A stretch of 64,000 nt of DNA from Octopus vulgaris. Its lineage: Eukaryota. The stretch is from positions 28,768,001 to 28,832,000 of the forward strand of contig OX597825.1 in the NCBI GenBank assembly GCA_951406725.2, given 5' to 3'. A program made the position numbers and the translations under genes. Positions 28,945-53,260 of this stretch are shown here, one piece after another (position 1 is the first letter of the stretch; each line of letters starts with the position of its first letter). The notes under the pieces are model-generated. The model saw nothing but the letters and a program-made list of their open reading frames with translations. It ran no database searches and was not told the DNA's origin.

Positions 28945-29500
28945 GCCCTGATGCAGTACCAGGCAGTGGCTCTCATGGCTTCTGATCTTAACTGATTGGA
29001 AGTGTTATCATGTACATTGTTTTGTCTTGGTATAAAAGATGGGCTACAGCAAATATTCTGCTCAATACCTCAGATTTGCTTGTCAGTTGTTTGACCTTAA
29101 CCAGTTGAGCATGTCCCTTAGTGGCTGACGATATGTGCATCTCTGATCACGAGCAGAAGTAGTGGGGGAGCATCATAGCCATGTGTTGAGAGGGATTCTT
29201 TGGGGTTTGAATAGTTCACCTTTGGAAACACGGGTGGTTCTTTCAACATCCTTAAACAACCCTTATTCAGGGACCGTTTGAGCGGGATGGGTATACTCAA
29301 CCTGAAGAAAATTCTAACTGGGCCCCACCTGCAAGGTCATGTGCTGTTTATCTTGATACGAGATCACCATGTCGCGCACATATGGTTGTGATGCATGTGC
29401 CTGGTGTACCTTTATCAGACGGGTAGTCATGATGGGTATATTGGGCTTCGTATATTTTACCCCAGTGTCACTTTGATGGCATGAACTGCTCTCTCACTCA
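28942..29500 (+). mobile_element. Repeat family C, longest copy, in (AAT)n
   Basis: aatgccctgatgcagtacc ... ctgctctctcactc(aat)n. Confidence 0.88.
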
Positions 29501-29566: not shown

Positions 29567-29612
29567 GACATCTGAAGAAGACTGGAGGGTATTTCAGCCA
29601 AAACGTTGTGTT
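29567..29612 (+). ncRNA. Type I hammerhead motif, mutated (G12A)
   Basis: gacat-CTGAAGAA-gactg-gagggtattt-cagcc-AAAAC-GTT-gtgtt. Confidence 0.7.
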
Positions 29613-35965: not shown

Positions 35966-35971
35966 ATATAT

Positions 35972-36925
35972 ATATAAATTAATAAATTAATAAAATATAT
36001 GCATATATACATACATATATGTACGTACCTACCTCTACATGTATATATACATGCATATATGGGTACAGGACACCAAAAAAAAAAAAAAAACGTCGAACAC
36101 AATGAGTAACGAAAACATAAACACAAAACCAAGGAAATGGACATTTTTTTGACGGAGTTCAAGAAAGAAAAGACAGAAATAGGCGTCTCATCACATGACC
36201 GCGATGAGAGGGAGGAGGAGGAGTAAGAGAAGGGGAGAGAAAAGAAGAGAGAAAAGAGAGAAAAGAAGGGGAATGGTGGTAGAGAAAAAGAAAAGAATGA
36301 AGAATGAGAGAGAGAGGGAGAGAGAGAGAGACAGTAAGTGGAAGAAAAGGAAAGCCCAAATAATGAAGGCTGAGAAAGGCAGGGGTTCTTGAACTCCGTC
36401 AAGTAGAGACGTTAACCTGTTCTCTCTCGTGTCTCAAACAATAGCGTTCGTAAATATTTTTTATCTCGTTTGGCTTAACAGCCCTTCTTGTTTGTGCTAC
36501 TGTTATTCTCCGTGTCCTGTCTTTTACTGTTTGTATTTTTTGTACTGTCGTTACTATCCTGTTTTTGGTCCATTTTTACCCCTCCGCAAAAAAACCTCAA
36601 ATTTTATTTAATTTGATTTTCGCGGGAAGGAAAATTTCATCGAAGACATGTATCGCCTTGACCTTCAAACCGTGGAGTAGATGAAATTAAGGCGACTGAA
36701 GAAGGGGAATTTTCCTTGTTTTGTATGTCCTGTAACCTATTTTTTCGTTGTTTTTTAAAAAATGTCCATTTCCTTGGTTTTGTGTTTATGTTTTCGTTTC
36801 TCATTGTGTTCGACATTTTTTTGGTGTCCTGTACCCATATATGCATGTATATATACATGTAGAGGTAGGTACGTACATATATGTATGTATATATGCATAT
36901 ATTTTATTAATTTATTAATTTATTA
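35972..36925 (+). mobile_element. Rearranged PLE-like non-coding element with inverted copy of its 3' end
   Basis: About 175-bp inverted repeat (35974-36150 vs 36757-36923), inner 17-bp inverted repeat (36149-36165 vs 36386-36402), HHR-like motif; homologue at 52702-53260. Confidence 0.7.
36627..36717 (+). ncRNA. Type II-topology hammerhead-like motif with GAAG core
   Basis: aaggaaaatttcatc-GAAG-ACATGT-A-tcgccttga-loop-ttaaggcga-CTGAAGAA-ggggaattttcctt. Confidence 0.65.
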
Positions 36926-36963
36926 TATGACAGAACGCACGCATCCCTTTCTAAGTAAGATTG

Positions 36964-37013
<50 letters not shown>

Positions 37014-42528: not shown

Positions 42529-42729
42529 TTTATTATATAGAAGGAGCTTCTACAGGACTAGAACTGTTTCATTCAAGAGAAACCATCAGGAAGGCTTCCT
42601 GATGATTTCTCTTGCATGAAACAGTTCTAGTCCTGTAGAACTCCTTCTATATAATAAATTAATTTTACTCTGCTATGTATTGAGTACCTTATTTACTGTG
42701 GTTAACCCCGAATCAACTCGGGACCTACA
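42524..42729 (+). mobile_element. Fold-back PLE-like end fragment with mirrored hammerheads, in (TA)n
   Basis: About 69-bp arms 42524-42593 / 42595-42663 plus an unpaired 3' tail. Confidence 0.8.
42594..42644 (+). ncRNA. Type I hammerhead motif
   Basis: gcttc-CTGATGA-tttctcttgcat-GAA-ACAG-ttctagtc-CTGT-A-gaa(g)c; the mirror copy keeps gaagc and the ttc/gaa stem II. Confidence 0.75.
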
Positions 42730-48584: not shown

Positions 48585-49011
48585 TTTTATTAAATATTCA
48601 GCTCAATACCACAGATTTGCTTAACCTTAACGAGTTGAGCATGTCTCTTAGTGGCTGACGATATGAGCAGAAGTAGTGGAGGACCATTATAGCCATGTGT
48701 TGAGAGGAATTCTTTCGGGTTTGGATAATTCACCTTTGGAAACATGGGTGTTTTGTTCATCATTCTTAAACAACCCTTATTCAGGGACCTTTTGAATGGG
48801 ATGGGCTACTCGATCTGAAGAAAATTCTAACTGGGCCCCACCTGCAAGGTAATGTGCTGTTTATCTTGATATGAGATCACTATGTCGCATACGTATGGTT
48901 GTGATGCATGTATGTGGGTACCCTTATAAGAGGGGTAGTCATGCTGGGTGAACAGGGCTTCGTATATTTTACCACAGTGTCACTTTCATGACATGCACTG
49001 CTCTCTCACTC

Positions 49012-52701: not shown

Positions 52702-53260
52702 ATATAATGATAAATAATATGTTTATGTCTATATGGGTAAAGGACGTCACCAAGTGTGCAAACAACATGAAATATGTAAAAAACAGGACAAGTAAACACA
52801 GAGAAAAGACTCTTCATCAGTTGACGGCTGTCTATCTACTTCTCATTTCGATTCTTCAACGTCAATACGAGTCTTCAAAGACAGTTTATACCACAAATTC
52901 TAAAATAAAATTTAGGATTTATGGAGGGTCAAACAGAACAGTGGAGACATACAATGAACCGAACGAAAACAAACATGGAGGTCGTTAGACCAGAACGAGA
53001 AGAAAAGAATGAACGCTGGGAGAAATAGTTTCTTTGGAAAAGAGAAAAGCTAGGATAGAAATAAAACATTCAATCTTTTGAACGACCGTGCAGGAAAAGA
53101 AAGATGGACGCTTGCCATGTGTCAGCTACGAGGGGAGAAAGAGACAGATAGAAAATGGTGAAAGCGGGAGGGGTGAAAAGGGAACTAGAGATGGATGGAT
53201 GAAGGAAACAGTATAGAGAAGAGAGTTGCATCAAAGAGGTGAAGATAAACTTACTCGGGA
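52702..53260 (-). mobile_element. PLE-like non-coding element homologous to 36400-36925
   Basis: Shared blocks accctcc..aaattttattt..aatttg, HHR-like motif, tgtcctgt, ttggtg..tcct.tacccatata. Confidence 0.65.
52808..52883 (-). ncRNA. Type II-topology hammerhead-like motif with GAAG core
   Basis: tgtcttt-GAAG-ACTCGT-A-ttgacg-loop-cgtcaa-CTGATGAA-gagtc; stem II weak. Confidence 0.55.

Follow-up and report, generated by a model that had tools for sequence, protein, structure and literature searches.

The repeat at the locus

The window, a 64,000-nucleotide stretch of the Octopus vulgaris genome, contains one copy of a high-copy, (TA)n-inserted, Penelope-like repeat of ~830 bp, which is non-autonomous and likely derived from a Naiad element. 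The main body of this copy, delimited by blastn against 29 loci, occupies positions 36386-36973 on the forward strand. The upstream part of the same unit is inverted here (36149-36385, reverse strand): it matches the sequence located directly 5' of the body in other loci, in the opposite orientation. Adjacent to it lies an inverted, 5'-truncated partial copy of the 3' end of the repeat (35968-36149, reverse strand, equivalent to 36757-36928, 93% identity over 182 bp), and the 3' end of the main body is bordered by a (TA)n target microsatellite (36966-37009), a flank that is also observed at loci L091-L094.

Searches of the 2.8-Gb genome returned at least 3209 preliminary matches to this window copy and 3848 to a homologue of an older subfamily (52808-52930, reverse strand; hereafter copy 2), whose existence had been correctly predicted. 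The window copy is 93-95% identical to its 39 best other full-length copies over 36480-36840. Units occur in (TA)n either singly or as partial tandems. Whole tandem units measure 832-839 bp (loci L091-L093) and each carries one hammerhead-type motif, which is not of type I; no recognised ORF was found in the unit. One young subfamily is 98-99.6% identical between loci (L091, L092, L093, L108-L110), although the Naiad-like reverse transcriptase (RT) matches found, as candidate mobilisers, are all broken.

Several observations concern individual copies. Loci L081/L082 and L096 are inverted head-to-head pairs with a breakpoint inside the ribozyme, near the stem I-stem II link, and truncation at the 5' end near the same link is seen in several further copies. 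A pattern match at locus L095 was dropped, as it does not fit the family present in the window. Among contigs of the sequencing runs searched, none ends at the predicted cut position. One contig of 859 nt (L092:4393-5228, run X1, presumed to be RNA) represents one unit in circular permutation that overlaps itself by 30 nt; a circular RNA and a genomic tandem would each produce this closed form.

The window contains other repeated sequences. Two decayed minimal hammerhead-like motifs of type I, at 29572 and 42010 (both forward strand), belong to another repeat, in agreement with the original prediction; they have CUGANGA, an extra A, a 5-bp stem II and an altered GAAAC. A near-perfect inverted repeat of ~120 bp with AT-rich ends, possibly a MITE, is located at 42536-42652. 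Three copies of a further dispersed repeat (10057, 29125-29302 and 48655-48815) include the words CTGACGA and CTGAAGA, with no evident hammerhead stems.

Layout of the RNA

The original prediction, a permuted hammerhead of type II, was based on letters that are all present: GAAG (36642-36645), CATGTA (36647-36652), TCGCCTTGA (36653-36661), TTAAGGCGA (36687-36695) and CTGAAGA (36696-36702). That a permuted hammerhead-type RNA resides in a repeat is also far beyond chance, since the genome contains 3713 matches to the pattern GAAAC..AGTAGAT..CTGANGA (block G, then block C) and 4 to the reversed control. The combination of an upstream stem II strand, the cut site and CTTCGAAAC gives 2163 genomic matches, with none in the control. 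The blocks are named according to Eckert et al. (2023, PMC10085705): S contains the cut site, G the GAAA and C the CUGANGA, each with its own helix strands.

Sequence and covariation together give the following order, from 5' to 3'. The 5' strand of helix X (36579-36583) pairs with 36703-36707, directly after A9. Hairpin Z (36584-36625) is inserted between X and stem II with zero unpaired bases. The 5' strand of stem II (36626-36630, with G10.1 at 36626) is located upstream of the cut site and pairs with 36662-36666. It is followed by the 5' strand of helix H (36633-36641), which pairs with 36680-36688 (9 bp in the window copy), and by the GAAG segment (36642-36646), placed by its position between helices as the strand of an internal loop separating H from stem III and facing AGUA (36676-36679). 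Block S (36647-36652) consists of the 3' strand of stem III (36647-36651) and H17 (A36652). Cleavage is predicted after 36652, where the revised fold agrees with the position originally proposed. The 5' strand of stem I and a short link to stem II together occupy 36653-36661 (TCGCCTTGA). Block G (36662-36674), which is mutated in this copy, comprises the 3' strand of stem II (36662-36666), G12-A15.1 (36667-36670) and the 5' strand of stem III. The AGUA loop strand and the 3' strand of H (36676-36688, the 'agtagat' motif) lead to an interrupted block C (36689-36707), with the 3' strand of stem I (36689-36695), CUGAAGA (36696-36702) and the 3' strand of X (36703-36707).

Helices X, Z, H and III are nested, and stems I and II cross them. 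Because X', Z and the stem II strand are contiguous and X begins directly after A9, the A9/G10.1 step accommodates two inserted helices and becomes a four-way junction. The block order in the repeat is S-G-C, a non-circular permutation. The features of type II (GSC), namely a GAAA 5' of the cut, an open stem II and the absence of a pseudoknot, were not found: the core is pseudoknotted, and the partner strand of stem II lies upstream of the cut.

The proposed GAAG-AC core fared no better. In the 30 nearest copies, which were picked on similarity alone, unlike the motif-retrieved copies of the alignment described below, GAAGAC occurs 6 times and GAAGTC 18 times. The canonical GAAA, claimed to be absent, is located between the stem I strands, after a CCTTC segment, in 25 of these copies and in 13 of 14 aligned relatives of copy 2. 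The family thus has a plain GAAA (GAAAC or GAAAU) inside the supposed stem I loop, a finding that the original prediction itself had named as speaking against it. The 'GAAG' is instead likely to belong to the AGUA/GAA internal loop, presumably a bulged-G (loop E) motif, and not to G12-A14. The window copy has AAAC (36667-36670) where the family has GAAA, so that G12-A13-A14-A15.1 lies between stems II and III in the family and not in the window copy. G12 is the general base of the hammerhead, and the window copy, which lacks it, is likely inactive. Copy 2 has the same layout, an intact GAAA (52849-52846) and a predicted cut after 52866, with a decayed upstream stem II strand. Both window copies are likely inactive.

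Other core positions are correctly placed in the family. CUGANGA follows stem I immediately on its 3' side; this word partly guided the choice of copies, and the nearest copies picked on similarity keep it too. In 45 aligned copies, H17 is A, C or U without exception, the U16.1-A15.1 pair is U-A in 44, and the G10.1-C11.1 pair that closes stem II with the upstream strand is G-C in 44. The 15.2/16.2 pair switches from C-G to U-A in 13 copies. Standard searches overlook the motif, as originally anticipated: Rfam reports no hammerhead for 36560-36800 at E values up to 10, and none among the best 150 of 266 matches over the whole window.

Comparative support for the fold

The alignment comprises 45 copies, hand-picked from ~100 listed, with truncated and near-duplicate copies left out. 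Many of these copies were retrieved through the motifs GAAAC, AGTAGA or CTGANGA, and the conservation of those words is therefore partly by construction. For the whole structure (X, Z, upstream stem II, H, III and I), 83.7% of the positions are paired, against 73.1% in shuffles and 39-51% in slid alignments, and the covariation score is 0.39, against 0.20 in the control. Double changes affect 20 pairs, a count that 108 of 500 shuffles equalled or exceeded and that is therefore not significant by itself.

Individual helices differ in the support they receive. Stem I, which was originally claimed to be covarying, is indeed paired in 93% of cells, and double changes compensate in four of its six pairs. 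Stem II formed with the upstream strand is 95% paired and Watson-Crick in all eight subfamilies. Three of its five pairs compensate, and within the family present in the window these three trace to a single lineage split, so that independent support for them comes from the by-eye reading of Naiad consensus sequences given below. Stem III is 82% paired over six columns, five of which have double changes. The base of Z is 94% paired (double changes in 3/4 pairs), and lower values are obtained for the outer Z helix (69%) and for H (72%), both reduced by subfamily-specific registers. Helix X is 83% paired over six columns; its inner four pairs are near-invariant, changes on both sides are seen in two columns, both distal, and the outermost pair is unpaired in 24 of 45 copies. 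At least two Watson-Crick pair types are found, by subfamily, in 3/5 pairs of each of stem I, stem II and stem III, as well as in 3/4 pairs of Z. A duplex of the H segments is predicted in all 45 copies, with energies from -0.7 to -10.6 kcal/mol and a register that varies by subfamily, and H is weak in some subfamilies.

A covariance model cannot represent crossing stems. When 12 copies were folded without crossing pairs, X and Z appeared in five (L075, L092, L052, L100 and copy 2), four of which also formed stem III, and the other seven adopted different folds. X is present in the nested minimum-energy fold of L075, L092, L052 and L100, although nested folds often do not coincide with the structure of minimum energy, and z-scores lie between -3.9 and +1.1. 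A descriptor of the complete architecture gives 59 matches in 1.34 Mb (both strands of motif-enriched loci) and none in shuffles; neither window copy passes it. Taken together, the proposed fold is very probably right.

Naiad retroelements and the origin of the repeat

A second family in the same genome, unrelated in sequence, has the same layout (437 matches, none in the control). It constitutes the 3' end of Naiad_Ovul/Obim, a tail with the same RNA layout in other letters, and is located ~1.5 kb downstream of Penelope-like element (PLE) RT motifs on the same strand (L166, L167, L182 and L202). RT motifs were seen upstream of this second family only.

Naiads have been described as lacking a canonical hammerhead, and only the flags 'HHR_core' or 'HHR_half_core' are assigned to them; eight families, Naiad_Ovul among them, carry the flag HHR_half_core in the available text (Craig 2021, PMC8557442). 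A by-eye survey of the supplement of that study covered 15 of 23 CTGACGA, 45 of 62 CTGATGA, 15 of 43 CTGAAGA and 15 of 25 CTGAGGA places in the available part of a text whose line breaks hide some. Within this scope, eight of the 54 Naiad consensus sequences show the full layout in their tails (Obim, Ovul, Amil, Aacu, Anas, 3_Chem, 2_Movir and Plae). They include, with differing helix letters, Naiad tails of Acropora (three), Clytia, Morbakka and Pomphorhynchus. The 3' end of Naiad_Esco has part of the layout, and no such motif was seen by eye in the listed 3' ends of Naiad_Adux and Naiad-1_Skow. Type CSG is the form seen in nematode Naiad tails, where the core is intact and block C uninterrupted; it was read in 1_Nbra, 2_Nbra, 3_Nbra, Hcon and two uncertainly named entries.

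The repeat shows insertion features of the Naiad clade, with (TA)n targets, partial tandems and an inverted, 5'-truncated copy; inverted truncated partial copies have been described for Naiad and other PLE insertions (Craig 2021, PMC8557442). Unlike Naiads, the family present in the window has no ORF, and outside the core its sequence does not match the Naiad_Ovul-type tail. The search for an autonomous element with the tail of this family gave none, and the shared sequence stops within ~940 nt upstream of the motif. As no parental ORF of the Naiad kind, with an N-terminal GIY-YIG and RT, was found joined to it, a Naiad origin of this family is inferred from the layout and the insertion pattern. 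The genome contains 88 Naiad-like RT matches, with a longest open frame of 292 aa. In the 45 loci around such matches, two motifs are present, both of the Naiad_Ovul type, and two copies of the window family, in the orientation opposite to the RT.

A very young PLE with a 775-aa frame (L111-L140, for example G000:C8:53368692 and 53372963), with a C-terminal GIY-YIG domain, ~100% identical copies and a 4271-bp tandem period, was considered as the parent and rejected: none of the tail sequence is common to the repeat and the 30 loci of this PLE. One of these loci (L139) has a copy of the repeat next to it, and in the four loci scanned CUGANGA is absent from the sense strand. It is possible that this PLE acts as a mobiliser in trans or carries another ribozyme. 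Five long frames near copies of the repeat were compared with Pfam, which gave no domain for three, GIY-YIG for one (the young PLE) and RVT_1 for one (an unrelated LINE).

Proposed mode of cleavage and alternatives

The locus is probably best explained as a mutated copy of a likely Naiad-derived repeat whose RNA has its hammerhead blocks in non-circular order and a four-way junction beside the core; self-cleavage, likely in strand-swapped pairs, is predicted for intact copies. Such copies, among them those of the L075, L092, L052 and L159 types, are likely to be active. In most families, links of 0-2 nt connect stems I, II and H at their far ends. Helix H appears to continue stem III, which would point away from stem II. 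One unit would therefore form a rod (H and III) tipped by the loop that contains the cut site and GAAA, and its multiloop would hold the 5' strand of stem II and CUGANGA. A hand count of layers (stem II plus about four core layers plus stem III, minus H) leaves a gap of 5-13 layers in six families, which the rise of A-form RNA converts to ~14-36 Å. H would thus be too short for the tip to reach its own multiloop, and the tip of one unit would dock into the multiloop of a second. A monomer would have to melt H or bend sharply, whereas a dimer fits any lengths by symmetry; the preference for a dimer rests on these counted helix lengths.

The docking partners could be tandem copies on one transcript, and they would form an antiparallel dimer in which blocks S and G come from one unit and the remainder from the other. 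A dimer had been proposed originally, through a palindromic stem III. Dimerisation itself is plausible, but stem III has no palindromic AC/GU and is a helix of 4-6 bp across a pseudoknot. Cutting would release monomers of ~830 nt. These could close into circles, from which a PLE reverse transcriptase could write new copies into (TA)n sites.

Cleavage as a monomer is the alternative that deserves most attention, though it seems unlikely. H would melt, or the internal loop would work like a hinge, allowing stems I and II to form in cis, and H would be a brake that delays the cut. The strands freed by opening H (~14 nt each) could span the distance needed, and stems I and II of L075 (-5.2 and -6.5 kcal/mol) together outweigh the weaker H helices of younger subfamilies (-3.3 to -6.5 kcal/mol). 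Moreover, the type SGC RNAs of Eckert et al. (2023, PMC10085705) were cleaved from single-copy templates. In the same study, however, the helix that joins stems I and II, the equivalent of H, was required for cleavage. The maintenance of H with differing sequences in several phyla, with links of 0-2 nt to stem II, also argues that H is part of the active state.

It is improbable that the RNA is a plain type SGC hammerhead with an intact block C. In such an RNA, the G-rich strand after CUGANGA and an extra A would make stem II, and X, Z and the upstream strand would be an alternative or regulatory fold. This stem II is paired in 94% of cells, and an extra base at 9/10.1 is usual in the PLE hammerheads described. 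However, half of its four pairs are G-U, none has two Watson-Crick types across subfamilies, and its duplex is predicted at -2.8 kcal/mol, against -6.5 kcal/mol for stem II with the upstream strand. By eye, it is reduced to 2 bp in Naiad_Ovul and is absent from the Acropora Naiads in the tails covered by the survey. An uninterrupted block C, in which CUGANGA and stem II are no more than 1-2 nt apart, was thus not found: the upstream stem II is preferred, and weak pairing of the intact-block kind may occur in this family.

Still a little less probable is a non-catalytic structured relic, or a protein-binding signal, that keeps hammerhead-like words. Both window copies are decayed, and conserved letters in a replicating repeat may reflect descent alone; against this, all core positions are correctly placed relative to covarying stems, in sequence-unrelated families across phyla. 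The model of the original prediction, in which a type II hammerhead is built on a GAAG core and stem III is a palindrome, can virtually be discarded: its 14-bp stem II is the minimum-energy helix of the window copy, but across the 45 copies the 11-pair arm is 64% paired, with mismatches in 9 of 11 pairs in at least one of eight subfamilies, its stem III is 73% paired, GAAGAC is a minority form among the nearest copies and the canonical GAAA is located elsewhere in the motif.

With respect to the strand-swapped hammerhead, we suggest tentatively, at somewhat less than even confidence, that a topology in which CUGANGA is opened by a four-way junction, outside the six block orders thought possible and active as a dimer only, is the standard ribozyme of many Naiads in a range that spans cnidarians and cephalopods, nematode Naiads having type CSG. 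If true, Naiads, said to be without hammerheads, would be the main natural home of non-circularly permuted RNAs. Their apparent lack of hammerheads would then be explained by searches blind to the knotted order: as the adjacency of CUGANGA and stem II is broken, ribozyme descriptors miss a class. The idea that PLE ribozymes cut tandem transcripts only would become testable.

Relation to known hammerheads

The nearest known relatives are the hammerheads of types SGC and CSG, both of which cleave in vitro (Eckert 2023, PMC10085705). The repeat shares with them the S-G-C order (type SGC), a short link from the 5' strand of stem I to the 3' strand of stem II, a pseudoknotted core, all core nucleotides and an extra helix, with H as its counterpart, that connects stems I and II at their far ends. 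Unlike type SGC, block C is interrupted here: the 5' strand of stem II is located upstream of block S, and X and Z are inserted between A9 and G10.1, a step at which, in the available text of that study, a break was assumed to be impossible. The sources also differ. In that text, non-circular permutations come from environmental RNA or DNA assemblies and one doubtful bacterial case; the type SGC RNAs are of metatranscriptome origin, none being assigned to the genome of a known organism, and type CSG is represented by two metagenomic sequences. In contrast, thousands of copies are present here in an animal genome, where an abundant non-circular permutation can be tied to a named retroelement clade.

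In the literature accessible to us, outside subscription papers and supplements that may hold more, no description of permuted hammerheads in Naiads or cephalopods was found. A preprint of 2026 that deals with animal retrozymes works exclusively with type I models in its available text (bioRxiv 10.64898/2026.07.22.740005), a 2026 paper names hammerhead variants with extra helices, without detail in the part available, and the available text of PMC10162972 contains nothing on extra helices. A link between rearranged hammerheads and frogs has no support in the available text of Eckert et al. (2023, PMC10085705).

Type I hammerheads of PLEs and retrozymes are more distant in structure and close in lifestyle. 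They usually have an extra base at 9/10.1 and often act as dimers (PMC4209133, PMC7229834, bioRxiv 10.64898/2026.07.22.740005), and circular RNAs are known from the literature to arise from tandem hammerhead repeats. Features that the repeat has in common with these systems are tandem units that are non-coding and carry a single hammerhead each, an RNA intermediate that is likely circular, likely mobilisation by PLEs, an activity as dimers that is frequent there and predicted here, and the extra 9/10.1 nucleotide. According to the same sources, their folds are nested, dimerise through a short palindromic stem III and belong to units of mostly 150-450 bp. The octopus repeat, in contrast, has a non-circular order, a long stem III, a predicted swap of stems I and II and a unit of ~830 bp, and the type I hammerhead in each tandem unit that characterises non-LTR retrozymes was not found. 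Its RNA is predicted to resemble the SGC/CSG class in its mode of working, but it departs from that class in the uninterrupted block C by which the class is defined.
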